From: Acaryochloris marina S15 | GTDB taxonomy: Bacteria; Cyanobacteriota; Cyanobacteriia; Thermosynechococcales; Thermosynechococcaceae | Direction of reading: 5' to 3' | DNA length: 16,615 nucleotides | Assembly: GCF_018336915.1 (NCBI RefSeq) | Contig: NZ_CP064922.1 | Location: forward strand, 1-16,615 | Shown: in pieces, positions 1-16,615 of the stretch | How the letters are laid out: each line of letters begins with the position of its first letter | Numbering within the stretch: the stretch's first letter is position 1 | The notes under the pieces: generated by a model | Told to the model about the DNA's origin: nothing | The model's input: the letters and a program-made list of their open reading frames with translations, nothing else | The model's database searches: none | Position numbers and translations under genes: made by a program

Positions 1-14
1 TTCTCTGGAGAATA

Positions 15-404: not shown

Positions 405-450
405 GTTCAGATCATTGTTGGATTGATTACACACTGTCAGCAAGTTGGTA

Positions 451-1233: not shown

Positions 1234-1339
1234 TTTACCAACTTCTATCAAGCTGAAGACTTTTAAGCAGCTCCAAGACTGTGCTGTACCGGCAACAGAT
1301 AAAATATTTCCTTAGATTGTCGTAGCAATCATTAATCGA

Positions 1340-2099: not shown

Positions 2100-2117
2100 C
2101 TGAGGAGAGTTATAGAA

Positions 2118-2462
2118 ATGGCGACTACTGCCCATATCCAAATCACCTGCAAAATCTCTGAAGTTCCAAAATCAAAGGCTGTCAACGGCCTGGTGGAGTT
2201 CTACTTAACCGAAAACAATCAGGCAGTGATGGTACGGGTCAAACCCAAACAATTCAAACAGCTGACGGATCATCAGTTTGAGTATTGGACAGCCTCCATC
2301 GTGGGTAAGCTCGGTCCAGTCAATGAGAGAGGCTTTGAATTACTCAATTCTGGTATTCAGGTCTACTCAAGAAAACCTAAAGCAGGCGAAGTCCCCAACC
2401 ATCAAACCCATCAAACCTCTAACGCCAAGAAGAAGCTTACAGAGGGGGTCCACTTTGGCTAA
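2118..2462 (+). CDS. Hypothetical protein (114 aa)
   Basis: ATG at 2118 has GGAG at 2104-2107, and the gene starts 18 nt after the stop of the upstream gene. I recognise no family. Its 3' end overlaps the convergent Rep-like gene by 26 nt. Confidence 0.6.
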   Translation: MATTAHIQITCKISEVPKSKAVNGLVEFYLTENNQAVMVRVKPKQFKQLTDHQFEYWTASIVGKLGPVNERGFELLNSGIQVYSRKPKAGEVPNHQTHQTSNAKKKLTEGVHFG

Positions 2463-3471
2463 AGCGGAAGTTAAGGGGGTTCATTCCCTGCAAGATCTTG
2501 ATGGAGAAAGCAAAGGCTAGTTCTGTCCAAGGTTGCCAGTCTCCTTTTTCCGGGTTCGTACAGACACACATTTGCCCATTAACTGGCATGGAGGCTGTCA
2601 CAATGCCTTTCTCTCGGGCCAGATTAAACCATTCATTAAAACCATCAGGCATTCCCGCCACTGCATCAATCGGGTTAGGGGACCAATGTTCTTGAATGGC
2701 TTTGACGAGCATCCCCGCCGGTCTCTTAGCCCGTCCTGCTTTTTTTTGTTGTCTGACGACACTCAAGGCATTTTGAATAATCTCTACAGAGGCAGACATC
2801 ACCACTCGTTTGATGTTCATATTCAGCGGTTGAGGAGCGATCACCTCTTCCACCTCAGCCTGTAATTCTGGGTCTATTATTATTTCTTCGGAGGAAAGCG
2901 GCACGTTTGGAGATTTAGGGATTGGAGCAGGATCTGTTCTTGTCTCTTTACATTCCTTAACGTCTTGATTTTCCACATTGAGGTTTTGGGTAGAGCTAGG
3001 CAATCCATCCTTATCAATTTCTGACTTTAGAACAGGGGGGAGTGGGTGGTGTGTCTTTGTTGTTTCTCTACTCTCTCTATAAGAAGGAACGCAGTCATAA
3101 GGCTTTGAAGGCTGTAAATTGGAAATTTCTTTCCAATTTTGGGAAATTTTTTTCTCGTTTTGGGAAGTTTTCTGCTCGTCTGCAGTATCGGGATGGTGGG
3201 CGATTAGTTTCCAGAATCGAGTGTTGAACTTATAGATGCTCTCTACTAATCCTTGTTCGATCAGGGAATTAAGGGCGTTACGAATCTGACGGGTGCAGTA
3301 GGGGCGTTTGCGGCTGTGGCTGCTGAAGATTTGGAATTCTTCTAGGTCAAATTCTTGTTGCTGTCCGGCGGGGCGGCGGCGTAGAAGCCACTGATACAGG
3401 GAACGAGCAGCGGGGGGAAGCTGCATCAGGATGCGGTCATGCTCATCCGTAATTCGGGCAAAGGCTATCAT
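2437..3471 (-). CDS. Putative plasmid replication initiator-like protein (N-terminal winged-helix, low-complexity linker, conserved-looking C-terminal domain)
   Basis: The 344-aa ORF has AGGAG at 3484-3488, 12 nt upstream of the ATG. Its N-terminus (LPPAARSLYQWLLRRRP...CTRQIRNALNSLIEQGLVE) looks wHTH-like. It is divergent from parA across a 490-bp non-coding region. The Rep role is inferred from context, not from a recognised family. Confidence 0.5.
   Translation of the reverse strand: MIAFARITDEHDRILMQLPPAARSLYQWLLRRRPAGQQQEFDLEEFQIFSSHSRKRPYCTRQIRNALNSLIEQGLVESIYKFNTRFWKLIAHHPDTADEQKTSQNEKKISQNWKEISNLQPSKPYDCVPSYRESRETTKTHHPLPPVLKSEIDKDGLPSSTQNLNVENQDVKECKETRTDPAPIPKSPNVPLSSEEIIIDPELQAEVEEVIAPQPLNMNIKRVVMSASVEIIQNALSVVRQQKKAGRAKRPAGMLVKAIQEHWSPNPIDAVAGMPDGFNEWFNLAREKGIVTASMPVNGQMCVCTNPEKGDWQPWTELAFAFSIKILQGMNPLNFRFSQSGPPL
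3112..3174. repeat. Three imperfect 21-bp tandem repeats inside the Rep-like coding region
   Basis: The units are ctgtaaattggaaatttcttt / ccaattttgggaaattttttt / ctcgttttgggaagttttctg. I counted 13/21 and 15/21 identities between neighbours. They encode heptad repeats QKTSQNE-KKISQNW-KEISNLQ on the - strand. Confidence 0.6.
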
Positions 3472-3673
3472 TTTCTCTCACTACTCCTGTCGATGATTGG
3501 GAGCGAGTTCGATAGATGTCGTTAAGCTCTCTTACAGAATGCTTGTCACCGATATAGAGAAGCTCTAAAATAAGTAAACGACATTATGGGTCCCTAACTT
3601 CTGCCTGGGAAAAGCATTTCAGTTAGATCCCGCGAATACTCGCTAAAAGACGATTTAGTTTTTTAGCCTGATG

Positions 3674-3703
3674 CCCGAGCTGCTTCTAACAGCTGGGGTT
3701 TTT
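3674..3703 (+). terminator. Orphan terminator-like hairpin plus T-run in the rep-parA intergenic region
   Basis: The sequence is CCCGAGCTG-cttctaa-CAGCTGGGG, a 9-bp stem with 1 mismatch, followed by TTTTT (3699-3703). No annotated + strand gene lies upstream. Confidence 0.3.
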
Positions 3704-3859
3704 CAGGTTTTGGGGGGGTTAGAACACCTTTTCCTCCAAAAAATAATCGATGATGAATCTTAATCATCTATACTACGCCTCTAATCGGCTTTGGGAAACC
3801 ATTTAAAACAAATGATCATATGGGTTCCGAGATTAGATTCACGAACCATAATTTCAGAG

Positions 3860-3925
3860 ATTCAAAATTTCGCCAATTTGAAATTATGAATATTTGAAAT
3901 TTTACAAATTCGCCAATTCATATTA
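3860..3925. promoter_or_regulatory. parA promoter/operator and candidate centromere-like repeat cluster
   Basis: TTCGCCAA occurs at 3869-3876 and 3909-3916, 40 bp apart. ATTTGAAATT is a direct repeat at 3876-3885 and 3892-3901. The inverted repeat TTCAAA...TTTGAA flanks the first TTCGCCAA. Sigma70-like hexamers (TTGAAA, CATATT/TATTAA) are present but their spacing is ambiguous. The region ends about 40 nt upstream of the parA ATG. Confidence 0.45.
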
Positions 3926-3961
3926 ATCTGCCTACGTCCGTAGAATCGAGATGAGTCAGCA

Positions 3962-4555
3962 ATGTATATCACTGTTGCAGGATTCAAAGGAGGTGTCGGG
4001 AAAACCACGACAGCAGTCCACCTAGCTTGCTACTTATCACAGCAAGGGAAAACTCTGCTTGTTGATGGGGATCCAAACCGAAGCGCAACAAGCTGGGGAA
4101 AGCGTGGTAATTTGCCTTTTAAAATTGTGGATCTGATGGCCGCATCAAAACATAGTCAAGGGCATAATCATGTGGTGATCGATACTCAAGCTCGTCCTAA
4201 CCAAGATGAAATAGAAGCTCTAGCAGACGGATGCGATTTACTAATTCTGCCAACAACACCTGATGCACTCGCTATTGATGCATTACTTCAAACAGTAGAT
4301 CTATTGCAGACATTAGGTAATGGGTGTTTCAAAATTCTCTTGACACAAGTTCACCCCAAACCTGTAACGATGGCACAACAAGCCAGGAAGGCACTTGAAG
4401 GAGCGGGACTACCCATCTTCTCTGGACAAATCAGGCGTTTAATTGCCTACGAGAAAGCAACTCTTGCCGGATTACCAGTCAATAAGGTACGTGATCGAAA
4501 CGCCAAAAATGCATGGCGCGACTATGAAACTATTGGTAAGGAGATTTTGGTATGA
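3962..4555 (+). CDS. parA: Type Ib plasmid partition ATPase ParA
   Basis: The 197-aa protein has an N-terminal deviant Walker A motif AGFKGGVGKTTTA, then LLVDGDPNRS and VVIDT boxes. Its stop overlaps the next gene's start (ATGA at 4552-4555). Confidence 0.9.
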   Translation: MYITVAGFKGGVGKTTTAVHLACYLSQQGKTLLVDGDPNRSATSWGKRGNLPFKIVDLMAASKHSQGHNHVVIDTQARPNQDEIEALADGCDLLILPTTPDALAIDALLQTVDLLQTLGNGCFKILLTQVHPKPVTMAQQARKALEGAGLPIFSGQIRRLIAYEKATLAGLPVNKVRDRNAKNAWRDYETIGKEILV

Positions 4556-4890
4556 GCCAAGATGACATGTTCCAAAAATTGGTAAAGACTCACCGTAAAT
4601 CCCAGCCCCAAAAAAAGCAGGCTACAACTCCCAAAACTCCAAGAGAAACTAAACGTCGCGGTCGGCCCGCAAATGGAAAACGATCAGATCCAAACTGGAT
4701 TGGCCGCACTTACTATGTTCAAACAGAAACTGACCTAGATGTAGAAGAGCAGCTACTAAAATTAAAGCGTGAAGGCAAGGAATTAGATAAATCCGAATTG
4801 GTGGATGCCCTACTTGGTGCCTGGGTAAAATGGCGACAAGGCGAAGATTCAGAGATTCTAATTGGCGAAATTTCGCCAAGGCAAATTTAG
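4552..4890 (+). CDS. Ribbon-helix-helix centromere-binding partition partner (ParG-like)
   Basis: It is translationally coupled to parA. It has a basic disordered N-terminus (KKQATTPKTPRETKRRGRPANGKR) followed by an RHH-like pattern: strand TYYVQTET, then helices DLDVEEQLLKLK and DKSELVDALLGAWV. Confidence 0.65.
   Translation: MSQDDMFQKLVKTHRKSQPQKKQATTPKTPRETKRRGRPANGKRSDPNWIGRTYYVQTETDLDVEEQLLKLKREGKELDKSELVDALLGAWVKWRQGEDSEILIGEISPRQI
4862..4879. promoter_or_regulatory. Perfect 18-bp palindrome TTGGCGAAATTTCGCCAA (candidate ParG-like/operator or centromere site)
   Basis: The sequence is its own reverse complement. It contains the same TTCGCCAA core, and the 12-mer AAATTTCGCCAA, found upstream of parA. 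It sits in the last codons of the RHH gene, just upstream of the DUF4258 gene's likely GTG start. Confidence 0.5.
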
Positions 4891-4903
4891 GAACTATGGG
4901 CCA

Positions 4904-5212
4904 GTGAAGATTACAGGCATCATTAAAGCTATTCAACAGGGGCAAGTCCAGATCACTGATCACGCTGATGAAGAGGCAGAAGATGATGATTTGGGCTTTG
5001 AGGAAATTTTCTTTGCTACCTGTGGAGGGGAAATAATTGAGACTTATCCCACCGAGAAACCTTACCCCAGATGTCTAATTTTCGGAGAAGATCCTAGCGG
5101 AAAAGCAGTTCACAGTGTTTGGACCTATGATCAGAAGACAGGTATTGCAGTATTGATCACCGTGTACCGGCCAGACCCACGACGCTGGATTGACTGGCGT
5201 ATTAGGAGATAG
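4904..5212 (+). CDS. DUF4258-like putative toxin
   Basis: The motif pattern ITDHADEE...GEIIETYPTEKPYPRCLIFGEDPSGKAVHSVW...VLITVYRPDPRRW matches my recollection of DUF4258 proteins. GTG at 4904 is preferred; the ORF track's TTG at 4862 would overlap the RHH gene and the palindrome. The stop lies 2 nt before the next gene's ATG. Confidence 0.6.
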   Translation: MKITGIIKAIQQGQVQITDHADEEAEDDDLGFEEIFFATCGGEIIETYPTEKPYPRCLIFGEDPSGKAVHSVWTYDQKTGIAVLITVYRPDPRRWIDWRIRR

Positions 5213-5214
5213 AG

Positions 5215-5460
5215 ATGGAACATCTTGAAAACTGTCCCGTTTGTGGTGGGCAACTAACTGAAAAAAGCGTCACTAAGGTTCTAAGGGGTGGTGGCCATAC
5301 AGCCTCAACCAAAGTCCAGGCAGACGTTTGCTTAAGTTGCGGGGAACGTATATACGCTCTTGATACTATCAAGCATTTTGCAGCCATCCGTAGCAAGCTT
5401 AAATGTCAGGAAATAAATGAGTTTGAACCGACAGGGCAAGCATTTCAAGTAGTTTCATAA
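5215..5460 (+). CDS. YgiT-type (MqsA N-terminal-like) zinc-finger protein, putative antitoxin
   Basis: The 81-aa protein has two CxxC pairs (CPVCGG ... CLSCGE) with the spacing typical of YgiT-type zinc fingers. It is tightly coupled to the DUF4258 gene. Confidence 0.65.
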   Translation: MEHLENCPVCGGQLTEKSVTKVLRGGGHTASTKVQADVCLSCGERIYALDTIKHFAAIRSKLKCQEINEFEPTGQAFQVVS

Positions 5461-5483
5461 CTGTAGAATTAGCTTACCTATGA

Positions 5484-5505
5484 TTAACTTCTACCAAGAA
5501 GTTAA
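5484..5505. terminator. Hairpin between convergent genes (weak bidirectional terminator candidate)
   Basis: TTAACTTCT-acca-AGAAGTTAA forms a perfect 9-bp stem. It lies between the YgiT gene stop (5460) and the - strand operon stop (5521). The stem is AT-rich and has no clear U-tract. Confidence 0.3.
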
Positions 5506-5520
5506 GCAATCTATAAAATC

Positions 5521-6045
5521 TCAACCTAGTTTTACGCTGAGGCCAGAGTTGGGCTTTACCAATGGGCTTCCAAAACTTGCCTTAGTGCGTTTGAGTTGTG
5601 CTTCAACCTCTTCAATAGATACACGATTTCCGAGCAATTTTTGTGATTCTGGTCTAGGCTCAGAACGCTCTTTGGCTCGATAGATAACCAGTTGTGAGAT
5701 TCCTTCGTCTCGCGCACGTTTGCAAAGTCCGAGGATATAAAATCGATTGAATTGTCCTTCCGCCATTGTTTCTGCGGCTGTATCCGGAACATGCTTAATT
5801 GTATAGCCACCTGATGGTTTGTGAGCACCTTCAAACTCTTTCATTAATGCATTCGCTTCAAGCTGATAAGCGAGCCAATGCTCATTATGTTTCTCAGCAG
5901 CCTGTTTAAGTAGTGAAAGCCATTGATCTTTTCCTGCCTGATTAAATCGATTACTGTAATATATGTTGTTGGTTCTATCTGCTTCTTCAATAGCTTGTAA
6001 CATTGAAGCACGAGTTACACTGTCAAGATTCTCAAAATCAAACAT
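5521..6045 (-). CDS. Hypothetical protein (174 aa), last gene of the four-gene operon
   Basis: Its start overlaps the HNH gene stop (TAATG at 6043-6047). I recognise no family. Its composition is clearly less AT-rich than the three upstream genes (27/60 G+C on line 5701-5760). Confidence 0.7.
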   Translation of the reverse strand: MFDFENLDSVTRASMLQAIEEADRTNNIYYSNRFNQAGKDQWLSLLKQAAEKHNEHWLAYQLEANALMKEFEGAHKPSGGYTIKHVPDTAAETMAEGQFNRFYILGLCKRARDEGISQLVIYRAKERSEPRPESQKLLGNRVSIEEVEAQLKRTKASFGSPLVKPNSGLSVKLG

Positions 6046-6371
6046 TATCTGTTCTCTCCTATTTCAATTTTTACTGATTTTTTTCTATTGCAATTGCTAC
6101 AGAGAAGTTGAAAATTTTTTTTATCTACGGCAAATTCAGGATACTTACTTATAGGTTTTATGTGATCCATTTCTAGTAGTTCAATAGGTAGTTTTGTTTT
6201 GCATTTGCAGTTTGGATTTGCGCATAGAGCACCTTGTTCTGAGTACAGACTAAGTTTTAGAGACTTACCTTCATCAGAACTTCTGAAACTTGAGTATCTA
6301 TTGATAGCAAATTTAATGAGTCTTTTTTCTATATATTTCTTACTATTAATATAATTCTTGAAGAAATTCAT
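6045..6371 (-). CDS. HNH endonuclease
   Basis: The 108-aa protein contains CANPNCKC...LEMDHIKPIS...NFQLLCSNCNRKK. That is the Cys pair, DH and N...CxxCN layout of the HNH motif. ATGA start/stop overlap with the upstream gene lies at 6368-6371. Confidence 0.85.
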   Translation of the reverse strand: MNFFKNYINSKKYIEKRLIKFAINRYSSFRSSDEGKSLKLSLYSEQGALCANPNCKCKTKLPIELLEMDHIKPISKYPEFAVDKKNFQLLCSNCNRKKSVKIEIGENR

Positions 6372-6715
6372 CTTTGAATAGATTCGAGCATTTTCCCTAC
6401 TGACTTAAATTTTCTTTCCAGTTCTTCTTGATTGGAATAAAATTGGCTTATTAATGAAGGTTTTTCTGGCTTCTTGAATTCTATTATTTTATATTTATTT
6501 TGTATATTTATTTCTAGATTTTCCAATGATCTTATGGTCGTATTTTTTGTTCTTGGAAGCTTTTTGTATAAACTTATTGATTTTATGACCTCGCTAATAT
6601 TGTAGAAGTAAGTCAATCCTTTGATATTCAAATATTGAATATTTTTTGTTATTTTTACTGCTTGATATTGGCTTGCCCCTAAATCTCTAAGCTGTCGCCT
6701 TGTGATCGTTTTCAC
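6368..6715 (-). CDS. Hypothetical protein (115 aa), possible N-terminal HTH
   Basis: The GTG start overlaps the upstream stop (GTGA at 6712-6715). The N-terminus TITRRQLRDLGASQYQAVKITKN is weakly excisionase/HTH-like. The gene is very AT-rich. Confidence 0.6.
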   Translation of the reverse strand: MKTITRRQLRDLGASQYQAVKITKNIQYLNIKGLTYFYNISEVIKSISLYKKLPRTKNTTIRSLENLEINIQNKYKIIEFKKPEKPSLISQFYSNQEELERKFKSVGKMLESIQR

Positions 6716-7092
6716 GCGGCTTTCTCCTCTTCATAGTCGTTAATCTCTTTTTCAAGATCACTATCTTTCTGCCAACCATTGGGAATAGCCCATCTATATA
6801 AAGGACCTAACTTACACATTAAGAAGTCAATTAACTGCTGAACTTTATTTTTATGATCATCAAAATCTTTTTTGAGATTTTTGTATGAATTATCTATTTT
6901 CGTAACTTGAGTTTTTGCTCCACGACGATCATATTGTCTTTGTAGAAGTTCTGGCCCAGCGTAACTTGCCAAAGCTAATGCTGCTGAGAGATCGTCTGTT
7001 GGTCTGATTGATACATTTTTAAATGCTCGTTTTGCATCGGCTGCTGTCCAACCTAATGATTGAGCAAATTTTATAAACTCTGCTTGAGTCAT
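6712..7092 (-). CDS. Hypothetical protein (126 aa), first gene of the four-gene operon
   Basis: ATG at 7092 is followed by about 300 bp of AT-rich non-coding DNA upstream. I recognise no family. Confidence 0.6.
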   Translation of the reverse strand: MTQAEFIKFAQSLGWTAADAKRAFKNVSIRPTDDLSAALALASYAGPELLQRQYDRRGAKTQVTKIDNSYKNLKKDFDDHKNKVQQLIDFLMCKLGPLYRWAIPNGWQKDSDLEKEINDYEEEKAA

Positions 7093-7398
7093 TTTTAGAT
7101 AAAGCTTTTCTATCTTAAGCTTATACTGCCCAAATCTTTATATATAGCTGCCAGACTGGATAACAGCTTAACTATTCATCTATGTCTAGTCATTTTCAAG
7201 AATGACGATGCAAGAGATTTAGTATCTATAAATCCTAGGAATATTCGATATTGATAAACTCCCACCCTATCTCGCTAGTCGCCAACTATTGATAATTACT
7301 TAGCAGGTTCAGGGAAGAGGATAAAGCAGTTCTGGTTCTTGCCTAGGTGCAATCGAATATAGATGAAGATTGTCTTAATGCTTACTTTGTAAATGAGT

Positions 7399-7764
7399 TT
7401 AATTGTTCTTTTGTCCTAGATTTCTCAGTTTCTTGCGTATTGCTTTGAGTTCGCTGGGAGATTTCCAGTTTTCAGGTTGTTCTAGACGATAAACATCTGT
7501 GCGGCCAGGTCGCTCATGTTTTGAAATAAATCCTCCATCATTTAAGAGGCGTAATCCTTTCTGTGCACGGCTTAATGACATTTGACAGACTTTACTAATA
7601 TTCACTTGGCTAGCGAAGCATTCTCCTTCAAAACTTCCTCCGGTACGACGAACAATATGCCCAAGTAGCCGGAATTCAAATGGATCGAGACCTGCTTCAT
7701 CCAAACGACTGTGGATGAACATCAGATCTAGCCTTTTTTTTAATGCTGTCTCATCAGAATTCAT
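7399..7764 (-). CDS. Winged-helix/HTH DNA-binding protein
   Basis: The 121-aa protein carries the pattern LDPFEFRLLGHIVRR...GECFASQVNISKVCQMSLSRAQKGLRLLNDGGFI...RPGRTDVYRL. This is typical of HTH_36-like replication or regulatory wHTH proteins, judged by eye. Confidence 0.6.
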   Translation of the reverse strand: MNSDETALKKRLDLMFIHSRLDEAGLDPFEFRLLGHIVRRTGGSFEGECFASQVNISKVCQMSLSRAQKGLRLLNDGGFISKHERPGRTDVYRLEQPENWKSPSELKAIRKKLRNLGQKNN

Positions 7765-7900
7765 AGATGGTGGCGGTTTTTAGATTTCAAGTGTAGAATT
7801 GGTAGGCACCTATATTATATCTGATATACATAAGGTATTACCTTAAAGGTATTTATTTAGCTCACGAAATTACGTGTATCGAGTAAAGGAAAAATAAGTC

Positions 7901-8089
7901 GTGGAAACCTCTAATAATCCAAAAAGCTCCACCTATCAATGGTTGATAGCTTTTCTGATCGTTGCTCTAGTTGCAATGCTATGTCTCACAATAGCCCTCA
8001 AAGGGGGAAACTTTGATCTTGCAGTTGAATTATTTGGAATAAAACTTGATGCCATAGTTCAGGTAAATAACCAATTAGCCTCCCCTTAG
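7901..8089 (+). CDS. Possible small single-TM membrane protein (62 aa)
   Basis: A GTG start has AAGGA about 11 nt upstream. The hydrophobic helix is WLIAFLIVALVAMLCLTIAL. There is no other support. Confidence 0.35.
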   Translation: METSNNPKSSTYQWLIAFLIVALVAMLCLTIALKGGNFDLAVELFGIKLDAIVQVNNQLASP

Positions 8090-8235
8090 TGCATCAAACT
8101 CTCTTGAGGCTTACAAAGAAGTGAAGTTACGCCTTGAACGATCAGGATACTATCCTGGTGCTATCGTGATTATTCTTATATTGGCTAAAAATTACTGAAG
8201 TTATTAAGCCATTAGAAAATTTTCGGCTTTGTATC

Positions 8236-8856
8236 TTATAGATCTAGGGCTTTGAGATACTTTTTTACAGTGTTGTAAGCTAAACCTGACTCTCGACTTA
8301 TTTTTCCTTTGGAATAACCTTTTTTTCGCATTTTTATAAGCTTTGGTTTGTACTGCTCAAATTTACTAGGTCTTCCTAACTTCTTACCCTGAGTTTTTAC
8401 CCTTGCTAGTCCGGCCTTAGTGCGCTCGGAAATTTTCACGGCTTCCTGTTGAGCTAGGTAAGATAAGACGGCAATCAATATATGAGCAACTAATTCGTTA
8501 TCCGTATCTAGTAAGGGTTCAGTGAGACTTTTGAACCGGACACTTAGCTGGTTAAGTTGCTGGAGGTAATAAATGGTTTTCTGAATGCCTTCACGAGTGA
8601 AACGGTCTAGCGACCAAAATAGTACCAAATCAAACTTTCGTCTAGCAGCATCGTCAAATAACCTGCTAAATTCACCACGTTCTCGCCTACCCTTCCGGCC
8701 AGATTCATAATCTAGATAGATATCATAAATATCCCAGCTCTGTCGATCACAAAATTCTTGTAACTGTAATAACTGATTATCAGTTTCTTGTCCCTTGTTC
8801 GCTGTAGAGACACGTAAGTAAATTGCAACTTGAATTTTGTGATTGCGTTTAGACAT
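8236..8856 (-). CDS. Serine recombinase (resolvase/invertase family)
   Basis: It has VAIYLRVSTANKGQETDNQ (catalytic Ser region), SLDRFTREG, ERTKAGLARVKTQGKKLGRP, and a C-terminal HTH (YSKGKISRESGLAYNTVKKYL). Confidence 0.9.
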   Translation of the reverse strand: MSKRNHKIQVAIYLRVSTANKGQETDNQLLQLQEFCDRQSWDIYDIYLDYESGRKGRRERGEFSRLFDDAARRKFDLVLFWSLDRFTREGIQKTIYYLQQLNQLSVRFKSLTEPLLDTDNELVAHILIAVLSYLAQQEAVKISERTKAGLARVKTQGKKLGRPSKFEQYKPKLIKMRKKGYSKGKISRESGLAYNTVKKYLKALDL

Positions 8857-8867
8857 GCCCAGACCAT

Positions 8868-8975
8868 ATCAAAAAAGGGTCCTTTTTTGATGGGTGTTAG
8901 CAACGTGTCTAAATTACGAATTTATAGGGGTTTGACTGTTCTAGAATTCGCACCCCTTTTTTGATAGGTGTTGGC
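8868..8975. promoter_or_regulatory. res-like recombination/operator site upstream of the serine recombinase
   Basis: The inverted repeat ATCAAAAAAGG-GT-CCTTTTTTGAT (8868-8891) has 11-bp arms and a 2-nt centre. The 21-bp direct repeat CCTTTTTTGATGGGTGTTAGC (8881-8901) matches CCTTTTTTGATAGGTGTTGGC (8955-8975) at 19/21 positions. Confidence 0.55.
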
Positions 8976-8976
8976 T

Positions 8977-9276
8977 TCAATTTTTGTGGTCTAATCGGTA
9001 ACCAAGAGCATGCATGATGGCATTGACACACTCGAATTTCGGATTACCTTGCTCCGAAAGAGCTTTTTGCAAACCCTTTCTCTTCATCCCGGCAGCAACT
9101 GCAGTTTCTGTGCTACCCCGTGCGCATGCTACGGTACGGAGAGAAGCTAGAAGCGCTCCGATATTTTCATCTTTGGCATATTCCTCAAAGATGACAGAAA
9201 TGTATTCCTCGATTTCCTCGGGATGCTGGCGAAAATAATCGTTCTCGATCTGATCAAGAGTCCTAAGTTTATGCAT
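8977..9276 (-). CDS. Addiction-module antidote protein (HigA-like HTH antitoxin)
   Basis: The 99-aa protein shows the pattern ...IGALLASLRTVACARG...GMKRKGLQKALSEQGNPKFECVNAIMHALGYRL. This is typical of the antidote partner of RelE/ParE-superfamily killer proteins, by recollection. Confidence 0.75.
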   Translation of the reverse strand: MHKLRTLDQIENDYFRQHPEEIEEYISVIFEEYAKDENIGALLASLRTVACARGSTETAVAAGMKRKGLQKALSEQGNPKFECVNAIMHALGYRLDHKN

Positions 9277-9518
9277 TATCTAGATAATCTCTCCAGTAAT
9301 TCCTCGTTTTTTTGATGTCTTGGGTCTGAGTGCTCTTATCTCACAAAGAATGATCGCAATTGTGCTTCTGTCCTCCCCGAAATAAACTCTGTATCAAGTA
9401 GGACCAGCAGGGGCATCTGAACAGAAAGTTACGGTTTTGAATTTTTAGGAATTCTCGCACTGATCTTCTTGGGATTAAGGCTTGATCCTGCCTGGTCTGC
9501 TTCAATTTCTGTATCCAC
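9269..9518 (-). pseudogene. Decayed addiction-module killer (RelE/ParE-superfamily) gene
   Basis: The - strand translation yields family-like pieces in three different frames. The first is VDTEIEADQAGSSLNPKKISARI.. followed by a stop. The second is ..GPT*YRVYFGEDRSTIAIILC, with an in-frame TGA at 9394-9396. The third is DKSTQTQDIKKTRNYWRDYLDNA*. The ancestral stop TAA (9269-9271) overlaps the antidote ATG (9274-9276), as in intact pairs. Confidence 0.7.
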
Positions 9519-9761
9519 TATTAAGTAAGGGTTTTAGCGATTCTGGGCTTCATCGCTAAAAAAAGATAGCTTGAGAAGGTTTACTGAGCTTTGAGTTTTA
9601 GGTGAGTTTTCTTGTGCTGATCGTGGCCATAATCTGACCAAATGCGGAGTGTCAAAAAAACGAGGGTTTTCTGATCGAACAAACGTACTACAGGTGAACT
9701 ATTTATAGGACATGGGTTTCAGGTGAAACCGTAGGTTTTTGTTCAAATGCGCACGCTGGTC

Positions 9762-9939
9762 CAACTCATTCGCTCGATAGGCCGTATTAATCCCCCAGTG
9801 TAAACAGACACAGATTCCGAGGACTACCCGACAACAGCTGCTTAATCCCCGAGATTGCTTTCTTCGTCCGAATCGGCTCCACTTTAATCGAAGATCCCAA
9901 CTTCGGATGGCTTGGCTTGGATCCCTTCGGCAATGGCAT
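9762..9939 (-). pseudogene. N-terminal fragment of a tyrosine recombinase/integrase, frameshifted and truncated
   Basis: The - strand reads MPLPKGSKPSHPKLGSSIKVEPIRTKKAISGIKQLLSGSPRNLCLFTLG. A run of 5 C (9792-9796, G on the - strand) then shifts the frame. With one base fewer it continues INTAYRANEL, the ..PRN..LF.LGINT..R..EL pattern of integrase N-terminal/core-binding regions. No catalytic domain follows. Confidence 0.5.
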
Positions 9940-10053
9940 AACCCACCTAAAAAGTAATTAAGTTATCTTCCTTATCAACCTATAACTTAATCACCTTATT
10001 TTCCCTTCTCACCCAGACAAAGCCCCAACCCACCACTCCATCTTCATCCCATC

Positions 10054-10108
10054 CCCCTACTCTCTATGATTAACTATTGGCTCAATAGTTAATCATAGAG
10101 AGTAGGGG
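10054..10108. repeat. 55-bp perfect palindrome (26-bp arms, 3-nt loop)
   Basis: The left arm is CCCCTACTCTCTATGATTAACTATTG (10054-10079), the loop is gct, and the right arm is CAATAGTTAATCATAGAGAGTAGGGG (10083-10108). I checked base by base and found no mismatch. Confidence 0.9.
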
Positions 10109-10122
10109 TAAGACCTATCCGG

Positions 10123-10286
10123 ATATTGCTAGGTGGTGAGGTGAGATTATCTCATACCCTCTTGGAAGTCCCCTTGGAATCAGTACTTCGGGGAAAATAT
10201 ATAAGATCACACAGAAATCTGAAAGTCTCTGATGTTGAAGCATTTTAGCAAGGGGGATGAAATAATCTCCCACCACCATATTGCTA
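10123..10286. mobile_element. 146-bp MITE-like element (10132-10277) flanked by a 9-bp direct duplication
   Basis: ATATTGCTA occurs at 10123-10131 and 10278-10286. Immediately inside are imperfect terminal inverted repeats. The left one is GGTGGTGAGGTGAGATTATCTC (10132-10153). The reverse complement of 10259-10277 is GGTGGTGGGAGATTATTTC. There is no credible ORF inside. Confidence 0.6.
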
Positions 10287-10496
10287 TAGATGATAGGAAA
10301 GATCACTTTTGCAGGAAAGTCAAAAAGATTATTGATAAAGTAAATGCAATAAAAACCTAAAATGTATAAAGTAAAATCATTCTAGTGCTATTTGTATTTG
10401 AATGTACCCTAAATCATCAAAGATGCTGCGGAGCTACTATTTTGTGCGTCTTCATCTAATCCAAGACTTGTTTTATTGATAGTTTATAAATAAAAA

Positions 10497-12542
10497 TTAC
10501 TGGGTCAGTTCATTCCCATCTACATCAACCTGATGAATAATTTGGGAAGAGTGAATTCGCCATTTCTTGTAGTACTCGGAAACATCATTACGATGGATTT
10601 TTCTAGGTTCGACTACACATCCAATTGCTCTATCTTTTATGAAATCAAAATCACCACTCAATAGATCTGTAAAAAAGGATAAGGCTGCCTGAGTGGCCAT
10701 CCCAGTAATTCCGCCAATCCAAATAACATTGTTATCCAGATTAAAAATACTCTTTGAAATTATTACAAACCCTGCATGTGGATGATCATTTGAATGTGAG
10801 CCAAAGTAAGTTTTATTATTAGAACCTCCCGCAACTACTGGCTCAGTACATCTGCCATCAGGCGTCATAGAAAATTTTAACGGTTCAATGACATGATTCA
10901 ACAGAGCTGCATAAAGATTGATAGTTCCAGATCCAACAACAATAACATTTCGATCCGTGACTAAGTCAGCAGTATCTTGCCATTCATCAATTCCTACTTT
11001 TAGATCTAGTTTATTGATCTTTGATAATGCTTCTATTAAACCAACCGTATCACTAGTTGCAGCACTCGTAAGCAGGCCTCCTCTATCTCTATTTGTCTCT
11101 CCTAAAATAACTGCCCATTTACTCCTTACGCCTGACATACATTCTTGCAAATCTTTTAGTGTTATGTCAGGCCGTAGATATCCCCAGTTTAAGAAGCATA
11201 ATGCAGGTATGGCATCTTTTTGGTTTAGCGTAAAATGTCTAGCTAACTTTTCTTCTTGAGGGTTTAAAGCACGGTGTTCAAGAATATAACGGTCTGATTC
11301 TTTGGTTGGACGAAACAACCTTTCTATAAGTACTAGTTTGCTATAAACAGAGTTTGATACTGCAATGCGACCAGTGGGACACTCTTTTTGCAATTCAAGT
11401 GCAGTTCGTAATCCCTCAGATCCCCCTACTTGTCTCTGATCATTAGGAATATCGCTTAATTGCGTATCTTCACTGTTAAGTGCAATGCCAATACGCACAA
11501 ACAATGGCGTATTTCTAAGCACTTCGTTTTTTATATTTAGATGCTGCAGATGTTCCAGAAATCTTAACGAAGCAAAAGCAGCTTCCTGTGGATCATCATA
11601 TAAATATATTCTACAGTTACCTTCGCATAGCCATTCATGACCACCAAAGTTTTTACAAAATATTTTCTCTGAAATCTCTGCGAAATCTCTCATAAATGCT
11701 TGATATGAGACATCTGCATTCACTAGGGTTCGAAGCTGTTCAATATGGGAAATATCCATATTTACAATTGTCTCCGGCACTGACCTCATCAACTGCTCTC
11801 CCAGTTGTAAATTAGCTGTAGCAATCTTGAGTCGATATCCTAAATCTTCCATCACAAATATTTGTGGTGTCATTTCAGGAAATTTTTCTCTTGCTTTGTT
11901 ACTAACATAATGATGCAAATCGCCAGTAGTAATTACATTATCAGCATCTATATCTGCTTCACCTGTGCGAATACCCTCCACCAAATGATGAGTATAAATC
12001 GACAACCGTTCTCCAGTTTCATGAAATGAATATTCTGTTGAGCTTGATGATGTCAGTACTACTCGACCCTCTGCTATCAGTTCTCTTTCTATATCCAATT
12101 TCCCATCATCAAGAAATCTTCTATTACCAAATGCTCCACTAAAACAGCAATCTAAAATTATCACCTGCTTTTTGGCCTTACAGGAATTCAGCCAATCATT
12201 CACAGATTGAGCAGCCAGTGCTGTTGAGGTTAATAACTTATTGCCTTCCTTTTGGCTTGTCTTTGCAGCAAAATAGAGCTGTAGTTGGAAATCTTTTACA
12301 CCATGCCCAGTTATGTAGAGTAAGACAAAATCATCTTTCTGGCGACGTCTTAGCCAAGTTTCAATTTCCTCTCCCATCTCCCCATGAGTAGGGTCTTCCA
12401 ACAAGTCTACCTCTTCAAAATTACCCATCGCTGGGTTGAGTAATACTTCTTGAAGTTCTCTGAGATTATTGTGAGGAAATCTTCCGAGATGTTTGAATGA
12501 TGTGTAATCTGCTGTACCAATCAATAAAGCAACTCGTGCCAT
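10497..12542 (-). CDS. Caspase-like (peptidase C14, orthocaspase-type) protease fused to a divergent cyclase-homology-like domain and a Gly-loop Rossmannoid C-terminal domain
   Basis: The first ~245 aa show the caspase pattern ALLIGTADY..., YITGHG (His80) and VIILDCCFSGAF (Cys133, codon 12144-12146). Residues ~255-440 thread by eye onto class III nucleotidyl cyclases (VNMDIS.., FGGHEWLCEGNCRIYLY, LFVRIGIALN, GGSEGLRTALELQKECPTGRIAVSNSVYSKL). Residues ~470-681 have beta-strand/Gly-loop units AVILGE, NVIVVGSGTINLYAALL and VIWIGGITGMATQAALSFF. The protease call is confident; the other two domains are hypotheses. Confidence 0.8.
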   Translation of the reverse strand: MARVALLIGTADYTSFKHLGRFPHNNLRELQEVLLNPAMGNFEEVDLLEDPTHGEMGEEIETWLRRRQKDDFVLLYITGHGVKDFQLQLYFAAKTSQKEGNKLLTSTALAAQSVNDWLNSCKAKKQVIILDCCFSGAFGNRRFLDDGKLDIERELIAEGRVVLTSSSSTEYSFHETGERLSIYTHHLVEGIRTGEADIDADNVITTGDLHHYVSNKAREKFPEMTPQIFVMEDLGYRLKIATANLQLGEQLMRSVPETIVNMDISHIEQLRTLVNADVSYQAFMRDFAEISEKIFCKNFGGHEWLCEGNCRIYLYDDPQEAAFASLRFLEHLQHLNIKNEVLRNTPLFVRIGIALNSEDTQLSDIPNDQRQVGGSEGLRTALELQKECPTGRIAVSNSVYSKLVLIERLFRPTKESDRYILEHRALNPQEEKLARHFTLNQKDAIPALCFLNWGYLRPDITLKDLQECMSGVRSKWAVILGETNRDRGGLLTSAATSDTVGLIEALSKINKLDLKVGIDEWQDTADLVTDRNVIVVGSGTINLYAALLNHVIEPLKFSMTPDGRCTEPVVAGGSNNKTYFGSHSNDHPHAGFVIISKSIFNLDNNVIWIGGITGMATQAALSFFTDLLSGDFDFIKDRAIGCVVEPRKIHRNDVSEYYKKWRIHSSQIIHQVDVDGNELTQ

Positions 12543-12946
12543 TAGCTCAATTGCCCCTTCGCAATCACCTTTACCTTTATTTTCTGAATATCAGCAATTC
12601 GTTCCAAGGCAGCGACTTGAGCATCTAATTCCTGATTAGTTTTGTACTTTAACTTAACTGTACGACCTGCTTCCTCATATTCTAGTTCTAGAAGATGGGC
12701 AGAAAATATATTCAAAAGCCAATCTAAGACCTTTTTGAAATTTGCAAATTTAATTTCTGCTTGTAGAAAACCCAGGTCAAATCTCCCATCTACAGACAAA
12801 GCACCCCGCGGTATTTGATCAGCACGAACCAGTGATGCTCCATCTGAGATTTCTCCCAATTCATCGACAAGCCTTAGACTGTATGCCTCTAAATGTTTCG
12901 ACTCCAACTCCAGATCAGACTGATTAATATCGATTAGAACTTGCAT
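12542..12946 (-). CDS. Small partner protein (134 aa) translationally coupled to the caspase fusion; possibly EACC1-like (unverified)
   Basis: Its stop TAA (12542-12544) shares one base with the caspase ATG (12540-12542). The overall pattern MQVLIDI..ELE..L...L..L.DEL.....LVR....P.GA.S......L....F..VLDWL....LELE...GRTVKL resembles, from memory only, the effector-associated constant component proteins described next to caspase/trypsin effectors. Confidence 0.7.
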   Translation of the reverse strand: MQVLIDINQSDLELESKHLEAYSLRLVDELGEISDGASLVRADQIPRGALSVDGRFDLGFLQAEIKFANFKKVLDWLLNIFSAHLLELEYEEAGRTVKLKYKTNQELDAQVAALERIADIQKIKVKVIAKGQLS

Positions 12947-13041
12947 GCGAGTGCTACTTACAAGGCTGGTACATCCCCCAGTCTAGTAGATATCAATGCT
13001 CCCAATATATGCTCAAAGGTAGCGAGGGAGTATAACAGTCC

Positions 13042-16000
13042 TCATCTCCCTAGTGAAAATCCTTCTTGTCTTATTGAATAACTAATCTGTTGCTCCACTG
13101 ACCGCACACTCGCATTAATCCGTTGATAATCATCAGCTCTAACATCCAACTGCCGCACCTCCAAAATTCCACCAGACTGCCTCATATCAATGGTCTGAAA
13201 AATTGGCTGCTCCATATCATTACGGAATAGTCTCACCCGTTGACTTTCAGACTCAAATCGATAGCGTTGGCCTTGAAAGACGCGCACACCATCTTCCTCA
13301 ACCCCAAACCGATCTAAAATCTTCACACAATTGGCATACAACCCATAAGCCAACTTCAGCTGCTGCAATCGGTCCTGCACATCAGGTTCTTGTAAATGCA
13401 CTACCTTCTCCCGCATCAACTGAGTCTTGGGAGCTTCATCCCACTGTTGATAAATATCCTTCTCCTGCTGCCGCTCTTGCAGCTGTCCCTGCAACTGACG
13501 TAAGGTTCCCTCCACATACCCCAATTGTTGTCTAGATTCCTGCAACAGTTGTCGCTTCGCCTCAATAACCTCTGGCCTTTCTCCACCCCAATTAAACAAA
13601 GACCGCTGTGGCGTCATCTCCTCTAGCTCTTGCTGCTGTTCTCGACAAGAAACCACCAAATCAGATCGCTGCTCTGCCATATACCTCACCTGCCACTGTA
13701 GGTCCTTACCTACTTCAGGATCAGGGGGTTCAGGATGGGCTTGCTGTAGCCATGTCTTCACGTCCCGCTGCAACATCAACAACTCTGCATCCCTCTGTGC
13801 TGAAAACGTTGGCTCTGTAACCACCAAATCCTGAGCATTCTCCTGCCCCCTCGACCGTTCAGCACTCAATCCCAATGCTTGCCGGTCTACAGTCACAATC
13901 TCTAGCTCAGTTTTGGCTCTAGAGAGAGCTACATAGGTCTGCTCTTTCCCTGGATTCTGCCCCGGTGCCCAGATCGCTTCCTGGGCCGTCCATCCTTGAG
14001 CTGCATGAACCGTCCGGCAATAGGCATAGTCCACATGCACCAGCTGGTCAGACATTAACGTCTCGAACTTCCCTCGCGTATTAATCGAGATCGTCCCGTC
14101 CTGATTGAAAGAATCAATCGTCAACAGCTGACCATTGATCTGCCCCCACTCCCGATGATTCCGGGTAAACCTTAATCGGTCCCCGACCCGTAACTCCAAC
14201 TCTTGAGTAGAAAAGACCTCTCGGTCTTTGTATTTATCCAATAAACAATCTTTAATATCACCAAAGCGATCTTGCAGTTGCAGCTGGTCTCCTGTAACTT
14301 CAATCACCCGATAGAAAGGTTCAGAAAATCGCTTCGTAGACCGTCGAAAACGCACCACATCTCCAACTTCGTAGTTGTAAGCCTGGGAGATCGCCTGCTT
14401 ATCTAATTTCTTCGGATGCAGCATCTCTATATCTTGGGCTTCAGCTCCCAAGGTTTGACGGTCAATATAAGCTGACCGAATCAAATTAGTGATGTCTCGC
14501 CGGTCCTGATTCGTATCGCAGATGATTAGTGTCTGTACCTGTCGCTCATGGGGTCGGGATAGATATCTCTGGGCTACTCCATGATTGCGAGTCTTCAATA
14601 TCGGAATCTCTTGTACACAGCCATGACTATCTAATAGCTCTAGCGCTGTCTGAGTCTGTTGCTCTGCTGCTAGGTCTACGGCTTCCTTTAACTGCGGGGT
14701 CACCTGTCGCAGATTCTCATCAATGGTTACGGTCTTGAGCTGAGAACGCTCCTGCAATAATCGGAAGGGTGCGCCTGCTTGCACTGCATTCAATTGCTTT
14801 ATATCTCCCACTAAGATCAATCGGCTATTCAGGTCTTTAGCTTTCTCAATCAAGGCCACCATTTGCTGAGTGGAGAGCATTCCAGCTTCATCAATCACTA
14901 AAGTTTCTTCTCGTTGCAGCTGCTCATTCGGCATCAACAGGTAACGGTCTACTGTACCTGATACCATCCCAATTTCTTGCCCCAATACTTCCGCTGCTGC
15001 TGCGCTGGGCGCTAGCCCTCTCAATTTTGATTGAGCAGTGTTGTCTAAAGCCCCTCTAAAAGCAGATAAGGTATAGGTCTTTCCTACTCCAGCATTGCCT
15101 TGTAATAAAGTAATCAGATCTGTACTTATTCCAAGATGCAATAACCCATTTGTTTGACCAGTATTGAGATTCTTCTCTGCTGAGGTTGCTCTCACCTGTT
15201 CCGGTGTTATCAAAGCAGCTTTAGAATCTCGACCTTCATTAGCAGAATCCAGAATTATCTGCTCTCGATGAATTGCTCTATGAGTTGTTAAGCGACCATC
15301 TTCTGTAGGAATTAATTCCTGAGACTGATCTAATGCTTGCTCTATCTCTATTGGTGAATAAAAGGCTTGAGCATGGCGTAGACAATCTTGTAATAATCTA
15401 GGTCGTGAAACAGCTACTTGTTGTGCTGTAGCACTCTCAATTGCATCATCAATGACTCTCTGGATACTGCCAGGATGTGCAGTTTGCTTATAAGCTTGCT
15501 CTAACTCTTGATGGGGCTGGGGATGAATAATGTTGAGTTCAGTACTAGTTTTTTGCCAGTTCTGTCGCTGTAGATCACGATCTGCTGGAATTAGTTTATG
15601 CACCTTCGCGACTCGACTGTCTAAACAAGCTATCTGCTTTTGATGCTCTGTTGCTTGTTCAATCGGAATATTCTGTTGCTCTAAGTAAGCTCGGATATCT
15701 TGCCGTCTGCTGCTAAAAGACTCTAGTTGTTCTGGTTCATAGCCTTGGATTTCGAAGGTATGGTCACCAGTCCAGTCAATCTCAAAGTCTTGCTTCTGTA
15801 GTTGACGAGCAAAGGTATGGTCATAGTAAGCACCGATAGTCTTCTTCTGGTTAAAAAGCTCTCGACTATCTAAAGTTCTTGATTTCCCATCGGCACATAG
15901 GGTCTGATTGAGAATCACAACATGGGTGTGTAGCTGTGGTTCTTGGTTGCGGTTATCATCATGTTCAAATAGGGCAAACTGTCCTTGCTTGGTTTGCTCA

Positions 16001-16398
16001 CTGATGACTTTCCTCTGTTGTTTGACTTGGGCAAAGATGCAGTGCTCTTCTATATAGTTGACAGTTGCATTGACGGCTTGGCGATGGGCCTCTAGTACTC
16101 TTTGATCTTGATCTACTAATCCCTTGATAGATGCAGACTTACTAGCTGACAGGGTAATATCCCATCCGGCCCTACTATTCTTTTGCTGTCGTCTTAAAGC
16201 TTTATTGTTGCTGTCTTTGCCATGACAAGCTTGTTGCCATTGCTCAGCGGTGATGCTTCCGGTTAGATTTTGGTGTTCTGAGAATTGTCCTTGCCATTGG
16301 GAGTTCTCTAGTCCATCCCCTTGACTGTAGTAATTATCCTTAGAGTGATAGGTCTCTAAGGCTTTAGCATTCATCGGTTTGCTGATGCTAGCAACCAT
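13042..16398 (-). CDS. MOBF-family relaxase-helicase (TrwC/TraI/TraA-like) with Gln-rich coiled-coil C-terminal extension
   Basis: N-terminal relaxase motifs are ETYHSKDNYYSQG (Tyr region), WDITLSASKSASI and FEHDDNRNQEPQLHTHVVILNQT (3-His motif, close to TrwC FRHETSRERDPQLHTHAVILN). The RecD-like helicase shows LLQGNAGVGKTYTL (Walker A), LVIDEAGML (Walker B), LILVGDIKQL, TVHAAQGW and YVALSRAK. The last ~270 aa are Q/E/R-rich. Confidence 0.95.
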   Translation of the reverse strand: MVASISKPMNAKALETYHSKDNYYSQGDGLENSQWQGQFSEHQNLTGSITAEQWQQACHGKDSNNKALRRQQKNSRAGWDITLSASKSASIKGLVDQDQRVLEAHRQAVNATVNYIEEHCIFAQVKQQRKVISEQTKQGQFALFEHDDNRNQEPQLHTHVVILNQTLCADGKSRTLDSRELFNQKKTIGAYYDHTFARQLQKQDFEIDWTGDHTFEIQGYEPEQLESFSSRRQDIRAYLEQQNIPIEQATEHQKQIACLDSRVAKVHKLIPADRDLQRQNWQKTSTELNIIHPQPHQELEQAYKQTAHPGSIQRVIDDAIESATAQQVAVSRPRLLQDCLRHAQAFYSPIEIEQALDQSQELIPTEDGRLTTHRAIHREQIILDSANEGRDSKAALITPEQVRATSAEKNLNTGQTNGLLHLGISTDLITLLQGNAGVGKTYTLSAFRGALDNTAQSKLRGLAPSAAAAEVLGQEIGMVSGTVDRYLLMPNEQLQREETLVIDEAGMLSTQQMVALIEKAKDLNSRLILVGDIKQLNAVQAGAPFRLLQERSQLKTVTIDENLRQVTPQLKEAVDLAAEQQTQTALELLDSHGCVQEIPILKTRNHGVAQRYLSRPHERQVQTLIICDTNQDRRDITNLIRSAYIDRQTLGAEAQDIEMLHPKKLDKQAISQAYNYEVGDVVRFRRSTKRFSEPFYRVIEVTGDQLQLQDRFGDIKDCLLDKYKDREVFSTQELELRVGDRLRFTRNHREWGQINGQLLTIDSFNQDGTISINTRGKFETLMSDQLVHVDYAYCRTVHAAQGWTAQEAIWAPGQNPGKEQTYVALSRAKTELEIVTVDRQALGLSAERSRGQENAQDLVVTEPTFSAQRDAELLMLQRDVKTWLQQAHPEPPDPEVGKDLQWQVRYMAEQRSDLVVSCREQQQELEEMTPQRSLFNWGGERPEVIEAKRQLLQESRQQLGYVEGTLRQLQGQLQERQQEKDIYQQWDEAPKTQLMREKVVHLQEPDVQDRLQQLKLAYGLYANCVKILDRFGVEEDGVRVFQGQRYRFESESQRVRLFRNDMEQPIFQTIDMRQSGGILEVRQLDVRADDYQRINASVRSVEQQISYSIRQEGFSLGR

Positions 16399-16504
16399 AT
16401 GGTCTTTGAGATCTATAGTTTAGGATTCTTTAGGTTTACTAACTATCAGTAAGTTATGTGTAATTTATTTCTTTACGGGGTTTATTGATTGTACTTGATT
16501 CCTT

Positions 16505-16535
16505 CCTACTGCCGCGTAGCGGGTAAGTCTGAATC
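16505..16535 (+). other. Candidate oriT nick region (small hairpin followed by GTAAGTCT)
   Basis: It lies upstream of the relaxase. TAC-tg-CCGC-gta-GCGG-g-TA is an interrupted hairpin, followed directly by GTAAGTCT|GA. From memory this resembles the R388 arrangement, where the IR2 arm is followed by GTATTGTCT|AT. A second hairpin AATCAC-tcttt-GTGATT lies at 16531-16547. This is speculative. Confidence 0.3.
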
Positions 16536-16615
16536 ACTCTTTGTGATTGTTTGTAAATGACTAGGTTTGTTCTTCAGGTTTCTCTAAATTTCACTGTAGG
16601 ATGCAAGTATGATCC

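Follow-up and report, generated by a model that had tools for sequence, protein, structure and literature searches.

The gene pair at positions 10497 to 12946 of a 16,615-nucleotide stretch of Acaryochloris marina S15 (contig NZ_CP064922.1, positions 1 to 16,615; referred to as the window) probably belongs to the described EACC1-caspase cell-death/defence system, and its new part is the C-terminal tail of the caspase protein. In this tail, a class III nucleotidyl-cyclase homology domain, probably degenerate, is followed by a rare α/β domain that we call domain X. The first-pass annotation of the window had presented the pair as two translationally coupled genes for conflict or cell death, centred on a C14 caspase-like protease that is intact, which was upheld, and as a candidate undescribed system, which was not borne out: the pair appears to be an EACC1-caspase pair (Kaur 2020; Evans 2025), and the name that NCBI gives the caspase protein already matches. 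Since the system is known and annotated, the high novelty claimed for the pair fails. No new explanation is called for by the two-gene core, which is a further case, cyanobacterial and apparently plasmid-borne, of a system with a recently solved mechanism.

The probable EACC1-caspase gene pair and its relatives

Kaur, Burroughs, Iyer & Aravind described the arrangement as 'System 4', in which a 5' EACC1 gene is followed by a 3' gene whose N-terminal caspase is constant (eLife, 2020, PMC7159879). The caspase carries up to ~50 alternative C-terminal domains, the two-gene system is enriched in multicellular bacteria, and, in the authors' prediction, EACC1 acts as a sensor at the membrane and the tails act as effectors (Kaur et al. 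2020, PMC7159879). In the EACC1-KrAvs12 system of Ktedonobacter, the caspase is fused to the Avs12 sensor and is triggered by phage tail-connector proteins. There, EACC1 is described as a soluble autoinhibited monomer that the caspase cleaves near Asp49, the C-terminal fragment is toxic and liposomes leak, and the diverse domains fused to the caspases of this system are described as sensors (Evans et al. 2025, 10.1101/2025.11.14.688446). EACC1 cleavage and membrane permeabilisation are reported for the Ktedonobacter system only (10.1101/2025.11.14.688446).

The window pair shares the main features of this system: a small gene at the 5' side, whose product appears to be of the EACC1 family, a 3' gene that begins with a caspase of the EACC1-associated type, location on one strand with coupled translation, a variable C-terminal region and a host from a colonial/multicellular-type lineage (a cyanobacterium). 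It differs in its tail, which consists of the degenerate cyclase-homology domain and the unnamed α/β domain, and in its small protein, which falls into a cyanobacterial branch barely detected by the Pfam EACC1 model and does not have the lysine conserved in that branch.

In the list of open reading frames (ORFs), the gene for the divergent EACC1-like protein of 134 amino acids (aa) lies at 12542..12946 and that for the 681-aa caspase/cyclase-homology/domain X fusion at 10497..12542, both on the minus strand. As the first-pass annotation had noted, the two coupled genes share a TAATG (TTGAGCTAATGGCAC), one base of which belongs to both the TAA stop and the ATG start. The module was also correctly described as more AT-rich than the adjacent TrwC relaxase gene (G+C content of 38-39% versus 46%; 41.6% for the whole window). 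Caspase homologues in the hundreds, together with small-gene homologues in the same position at 62 of 80 loci, show that the pair represents real genes, beyond chance.

The caspase (C14) domain occupies aa 1-245 of the larger protein (11808..12542, minus strand). It is matched at aa 4-219 by the NCBIfam model NF047832, 'caspase, EACC1-associated type', with 159.1 bits against a curated cut-off of 140, and at aa 3-196 by Pfam Peptidase_C14 (PF00656; E 1e-13), and the complete 681-aa protein is 100% identical to the NCBI entry 'caspase, EACC1-associated type [Acaryochloris marina]'. The His-Cys dyad context was confirmed as intact, with the catalytic His80 in YITGHG (codon 12303-12305) and Cys133 in DCCFSGAF (codon 12144-12146), and both columns were invariant in an alignment with 36 homologous caspase domains. 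We take the Asp131-x-Cys133 context of this domain to resemble that of metacaspases. PDB sequences searched with the caspase domain gave nothing at E<=0.01. PADLOC 2.0 sees only a generic caspase in the 681-aa protein and does not call the two-gene system, which explains why the pair looked unnamed; the first-pass annotation had proposed PADLOC as a check, and the match to a named system came instead through NCBIfam, NCBI and the literature.

Homologues of the caspase were found in the hundreds at E<1e-55. More than 200 of them were 44-61% identical (119 measured over aa 1-245), with the similarity confined to aa 1-245, and their tails varied: GUN4, FGE-sulfatase, periplasmic-binding protein (PBP), EAL, TPR and WD40 domains were found, among others. 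In cyanobacterial orthocaspases and metacaspase-like proteases, the C-terminal domains vary and include GUN4, FGE-sulfatase and WD40, and the orthocaspase literature treats the proteases alone. The window caspase is of the same caspase family, and its homologues have GUN4, FGE-sulfatase, PBP, EAL, TPR and WD40 tails as well, but it is different in having a conserved 5' partner, which defines a two-component toxin-activating system.

This partner was recognized through its position. A word-indexed homologue search with the 134-aa protein returned only the protein itself, and its relatives emerged through the neighbours of the caspase genes. A genome scan for this caspase type yielded 80 loci, almost all in cyanobacterial records, and at 62 of them phmmer with the window small protein found an ORF ending just 5' of the caspase start on the same strand (E 2e-26 to 1e-4). 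Two further loci had a frameshifted copy of the small gene (63 loci if it is counted) and a remnant, respectively. Among the closest metagenomic relatives of the caspase (including L002-L004), the upstream gene encodes a visibly similar protein of 129-133 aa. Thus, the proposed check of whether the small gene is a conserved 5' neighbour of caspase homologues gave a positive answer.

EACC1 (PF19953) was the Pfam family matched by most of the 61 aligned small proteins, although only 4 of the 61 matched it at E<=0.01 (best 4e-5). A profile of the small-protein family retrieved 819 proteins of ~125 aa. One of its core matches, P0194 (E 2.8e-48), carries the name EACC1 at JGI and passes the gathering score of the Pfam EACC1 model (24.7 versus 23.6, profile positions 4-104 of 107); the window small protein matches P0194 with E 1e-8 (BLASTP), and none of its relatives exceeds 40% identity to it. 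From this transitive homology and the conserved position, rather than from a direct match, we conclude that the 134-aa protein appears to belong to a cyanobacterial branch of EACC1 that is barely reached by the Pfam model.

No member of the small-protein family has the hydrophobicity of a transmembrane (TM) helix. The Kyte-Doolittle maximum over 19 residues was 0.83 for the window small protein, none of the 61 family members reached the TM-grade value of 1.6, and the conserved TM helix with a small-residue patch that is part of the EACC1 description by Kaur et al. was not found in the family. This fits a soluble precursor, and a TM helix may not define EACC1, since Evans et al. describe a soluble autoinhibited monomer.

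What the family has is the motif P-E-G-x-K (Pro in 60 of 61 members, Lys in 56) just before a Gly-rich hydrophobic segment, GGFLxGxL, and this motif is a candidate protease site. The corresponding window sequences are P-R-G-A-L and GRFDLGFL. Pro46 of the window protein stands in the column kept in 60 of 61, and the next conserved column, that of the lysine, holds Leu50. The linker PRGALSVDGR (aa 46-55; 12782..12811, minus strand) joins the two halves of the small protein, N-terminal and C-terminal, and is the region where cleavage may take place. If the lysine of column 50 is the P1 residue of the family, an assumption that we draw solely from the metacaspase-like Asp131-x-Cys133 context, the window protein must be cut at a different site, for which Arg47, Asp53 and Arg55 are candidates. 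A computed cut anywhere in aa 47-55 yields fragments of 5.3-6.0 and 9.1-9.8 kDa, comparable with the published 5.7- and 7.1-kDa fragments of the Ktedonobacter racemifer EACC1, for which Asp49 is the proposed site (10.1101/2025.11.14.688446).

The cyclase-homology and domain X tail

The tail (aa 246-681) was predicted by AlphaFold2 with a mean pLDDT of 92 and a pTM of 0.91 as two compact domains with a helical linker between them (aa 422-474; 11121..11279, minus strand, from the AlphaFold2 secondary structure), in agreement with the two further globular regions beyond the protease that had been noted at first. Scanned against Pfam, NCBIfam and PADLOC, aa 246-681 had no match. The module is rare: an exhaustive phmmer search with aa 246-681 against 1.84 billion representative proteins (E<=0.001) gave only 70 representative matches, mostly stand-alone proteins of 420-460 aa with both domains. 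The closest, P0002, is 53% identical and stands alone; a hidden caspase upstream of it was ruled out, as the sequence there has stops in all frames and no similarity. No other tail relative in this library has an EACC1-type caspase, and the window protein alone combines the two.

The middle region is the class III nucleotidyl-cyclase homology domain (aa ~252-421; 11280..11789, minus strand), identified by profile and Foldseek comparison. The A3 profile of the C-terminal module matched class III cyclases in the PDB (Ma1120, 4wp8, E 7.9e-11; also 3mr7 and 1ybt), and the AlphaFold2 model matched 4wp8 in Foldseek with E 1.5e-7, with TM scores of 0.74-0.78 (target-normalised) for class III cyclases. 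The suggestion that this region is cyclase-like therefore held. However, several residues needed for catalysis are changed. The first metal-binding Asp is kept as Asp263 (Asp in 25 of 31 family members in this column), the second metal-binding position is Asn309 (11616-11618; Asp in 21, Glu in 4 and Asn in 3 of the 31), the positions of the transition-state Asn and Arg are Gly377 and Glu383, and that of the base-specifying Lys is Leu305 (Ma1120 register). The canonical Asn/Arg pair is missing in the whole tail-module family and not only in the window. Asn309 is likewise a shared change and not a private lesion, because P0002 also has Asn in this column. Judged by these residues, the window domain is probably catalytically degenerate and, of the two functions suggested in the first-pass annotation, signal-mimicking rather than signal-generating is the probable one, given Asn309 and the missing Asn/Arg pair.

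We read the window copy as a pseudo-cyclase from a Pycsar-like immune cyclase lineage (for background, the 2026 Pucsar preprint). Pycsar and Pucsar systems pair a PycC or PucC cyclase with PycTM or CNBD-TIR effectors. The window domain shares the class III cyclase fold with them, the tail has stand-alone relatives that can adjoin PycTM effector or TIR genes, and a C-terminal accessory domain stands at the place that AGS-C holds in Pycsar-2 cyclases. The window domain differs from these cyclases in having neither the second metal-binding Asp nor the Asn/Arg pair and in giving no match to the PADLOC PycC models; one tail relative gave a weak PADLOC PycC match (E 4.7e-6). No PycTM or TIR gene and no gene for a cNMP-binding effector was found within the window. 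The tail looks like an immune-type cyclase module that lost its catalytic residues and was captured to serve a caspase as its regulatory end.

Domain X (aa 475-681; 10500..11120, minus strand) was delimited in the AlphaFold2 model and is predicted to be a ligand-binding or sensor domain. Modelled alone, it had a mean pLDDT of 90.3 and an α/β fold with six helices, a β-meander insertion and Gly-rich strand-to-helix loops. Its motifs are AATSD, DEWxDT, VGSGxxNxYA and GITGMATQAA, and the invariant residues G481, T496, S497, D498, D519, W521, D526, G537, N542, N549, N601, W608, G611, G614 and T617 are all kept in the window, where nearly all polar residues that are invariant in the family are retained. 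In the model, these residues sit at the C-terminal ends of strands and the N-terminal ends of helices. Ligands of α/β folds are usually bound at such places, and the model suggests that domain X may bind a ligand at the site of the invariant residues.

No Pfam family matched the domain X region of any of the 38 family members, and a comparison of domain X with the predicted viral structures of BFVD gave nothing. The best PDB matches (BcsB flavodoxin-like, GH84 and GH67 glycosidase N-domains) had query-normalised TM scores of 0.41-0.49 and were not treated as homology. The first-pass annotation had called this region a nucleotide-binding Rossmannoid sensor; 'Rossmannoid' is fair for the predicted shape, whereas no nucleotide-binding relative was found (best PDB TM scores as above). 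AGS-C was considered and ruled out by fold. This sensor domain, C-terminal to immune cyclases, is an Ig-like β-sandwich of ~18 kDa (10.1101/2023.05.21.541620), while domain X is predicted to be α/β and no AGS-C match occurred among the Pfam families of the 38 members. Domain X is a rare, confidently folded family with invariant polar residues and with no solved-structure relative, and it recurs with TIR, CHAT, EAD1, NUDIX, phosphoesterase and PycTM partners.

Among the tail relatives, fusions were found of the whole module with CHAT (P0243) and of tail relatives with TIR (P0249, P0269 and P0296), EAD1 (P0301), metallophosphoesterase (P0300) and NUDIX (P0285). The stand-alone relative P0246 (L089, 651-2514) has a PycTM effector gene 32 nucleotides (nt) downstream (Pfam PF18967; PADLOC E 5.5e-28), and another stand-alone relative has the gene for a type I restriction S subunit on one side and three TIR genes on the other. 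As an observation in its own right, the P0246-PycTM locus suggests an undescribed Pycsar-like branch, with a cyclase that bears domain X instead of AGS-C. Separately, genes for Ham1p-like (ITPase-type) NTP pyrophosphatases adjoin stand-alone modules in two of seven contexts (L001, 1859-2524; L090, 5780-6941), and in L090 the module also comes after a gene that encodes PNP_UDP plus FGE-sulfatase.

Proposed mechanism and alternatives

We consider it fairly probable that the pair works as an EACC1-caspase system in which the activated caspase cuts the 134-aa pro-toxin in its middle linker to release a pore-forming C-terminal fragment, with the pseudo-cyclase/domain X tail as the input module. By homology with the Ktedonobacter EACC1-KrAvs12 system, in which this was shown, the 134-aa protein would be made as a soluble autoinhibited pro-toxin. 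The 681-aa protein would be inactive until its tail perceives a cue, for example a component of a phage or a ligand of the nucleotide type. If ligand binding makes the tail dimerise or oligomerise, this could then unite the N-terminal caspase domains and switch them on, a natural route since cyclase-homology domains act as dimers. The His80/Cys133 protease would cut the small protein in the linker at ~aa 46-55, and the C-terminal fragment, on the Ktedonobacter precedent, would oligomerise into membrane pores, so that the cell is killed or arrested. The protease would then not be the terminal effector that the first-pass annotation had proposed, as in EACC1-caspase systems its task is to activate the small protein, and the pore-forming toxin is that protein. 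Of the roles that had been offered for the small protein (substrate, inhibitor or adaptor), the published mechanism best supports that of substrate.

The same logic is known from bacterial gasdermins with caspase-like proteases and from Pepco proteins with trypsin-like proteases, where a small pro-toxin forms pores after a linked protease has removed its inhibitory part. Their toxins have folds unrelated to that of EACC1, and EACC1 loses its N-terminal part and not a C-terminal tail.

Several observations weigh against this mechanism for the window pair. The window small protein had no Pfam match even at E<=10 and none in NCBIfam or PADLOC, and it is an outlier of its family, with Leu at the Lys50 column, Ile at Arg80 and His at Lys84. 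Since it departs from near-invariant columns and has no direct EACC1 match, its cleavage site and activity are uncertain. About 16 to 17 of the 80 caspase loci have no small gene within 3 kb; the loci without an EACC1-like gene are L013, L021, L022, L024, L028, L038, L039, L042, L054, L062, L064, L067, L070, L071, L075, L076 and L082, the last with an upstream sequence too short to judge. The caspase type can therefore exist without EACC1, and no other conserved partner was found at these 17 loci. Finally, the pseudo-cyclase/domain X tail is read as a sensor or switch for the caspase from its position and by analogy only.

What the tail perceives can be proposed more tentatively. As a new kind of switch, it may respond to a nucleotide second messenger or to a ligand of phage origin, and we regard it as possible, if unlikely, that the pair is a nucleotide-gated caspase/pore-toxin system derived from a captured Pycsar-like module, with domain X as a new immune-cyclase sensor in the place taken by AGS-C in Pycsar-2 and CBASS enzymes. 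The ligand of domain X, once found, would give a new sensor of bacterial immune signalling and would test pseudo-cyclases as nucleotide receptors.

Of the alternatives, a role in plasmid or cell physiology instead of phage defence, such as post-segregational killing, competitor exclusion or stress-induced death, is unlikely. The plasmid-like contig, with its TrwC relaxase, ParA, resolvase and toxin-antitoxin genes, would suit such a role, and fusions of the EACC1-system caspase to DnaK-like chaperones have been noted and stress roles suggested (Evans et al. 2025, 10.1101/2025.11.14.688446). However, relatives of both halves lie in defence-type neighbourhoods, and the related EACC1 system responds to a phage protein. 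Even in a physiological role, the cleavage-then-pore mechanism would be unchanged, and the trigger alone would differ.

We give little credence to the division of labour originally predicted for EACC1 systems by Kaur et al., by which the small protein would be a membrane-associated sensor and the caspase would cut itself, freeing the cyclase-like and domain X tail as an effector. The fusion of tail relatives to effector-associated domains such as EAD1 agrees with it, but in a related system EACC1 was shown by experiment to be the toxin that is cut, no member of the small-protein family has a TM-grade hydrophobic segment, and a degenerate cyclase is an unlikely toxin. Equally improbable is a decaying or neofunctionalised locus, in which the pair, after losses of key residues in its small protein and its cyclase, no longer performs the EACC1-caspase function. 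The near-invariant columns at which the small protein deviates, its low identity to any relative and the loss of the second metal-binding Asp of the cyclase would fit such decay. Against this, neither reading frame is broken, the stop and start still overlap, the invariant residues of the caspase are all present, those of domain X are retained, and the Asn at column 309 is also found in the closest stand-alone relative.

Least probable of all is an active, non-canonical Pycsar-type cyclase whose product gates the protease through domain X or through a partner encoded elsewhere: most family members do keep both acidic ligands (Asp in 25 of 31 at 263; Asp or Glu in 25 of 31 at 309), one stand-alone relative lies 32 nt upstream of a PycTM gene and another has the weak PycC match, but the window domain has Asn309, carries Gly377 and Glu383 where the canonical Asn and Arg would be, is not matched by the PADLOC PycC models and is accompanied by no cNMP-binding effector encoded in the window.

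Genomic context

The window resembles a small plasmid of the mobilisable kind. No near-match for the region was found in PLSDB, Rfam gave no match on the whole window, and no terminal overlap that would prove circularity was found. The TrwC relaxase-helicase gene (13042-16398) adjoins the gene pair, and a consensus scan that covered the 95 bp separating the relaxase gene from the small gene found a promoter-like site at 13029..13057 on the minus strand (TTCACT, a 17-nt spacer and TATACT, with TG). This site is a possible promoter for the gene pair; promoter-like sites in the region are not above the shuffled expectation, so that the evidence for it is weak.

Downstream of the module, where the first-pass annotation had placed MITE, palindrome, integrase and toxin scars, there are an inverted-repeat pair, a 26-nt palindrome, a serine resolvase gene (8236-8856) and a gene for an HI1420-type addiction-module antidote (8977-9276; E 2e-14). 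The palindrome is a perfect 26-nt inverted repeat with a 3-nt spacer at 10054-10108 (CCCCTACTCTCTATGATTAACTATTG / CAATAGTTAATCATAGAGAGTAGGGG), ~390 bp downstream of the caspase stop, and may serve in recombination, as an origin or in the binding of a protein. The inverted-repeat pair is imperfect and MITE-like, with 22-nt arms at 9294-9315 and 9652-9673 that are 86% complementary and enclose 336 nt. The 1.2 kb between the antidote and caspase genes contains a single ORF of at least 60 aa, which is 63 aa long.

Farther away, the ParA gene (3962-4555) is followed directly on the plus strand by genes for a DUF4258 toxin (E 1.8e-18) and a small protein with weak similarity to the MqsA antitoxin (4862-5460), likely a toxin-antitoxin pair. 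A block of low G+C content (29-33%) with four tightly packed ORFs on the minus strand (6001-7100) includes an HNH endonuclease gene (6045-6371, minus strand; E 2.5e-9) and looks like a separately acquired cassette.

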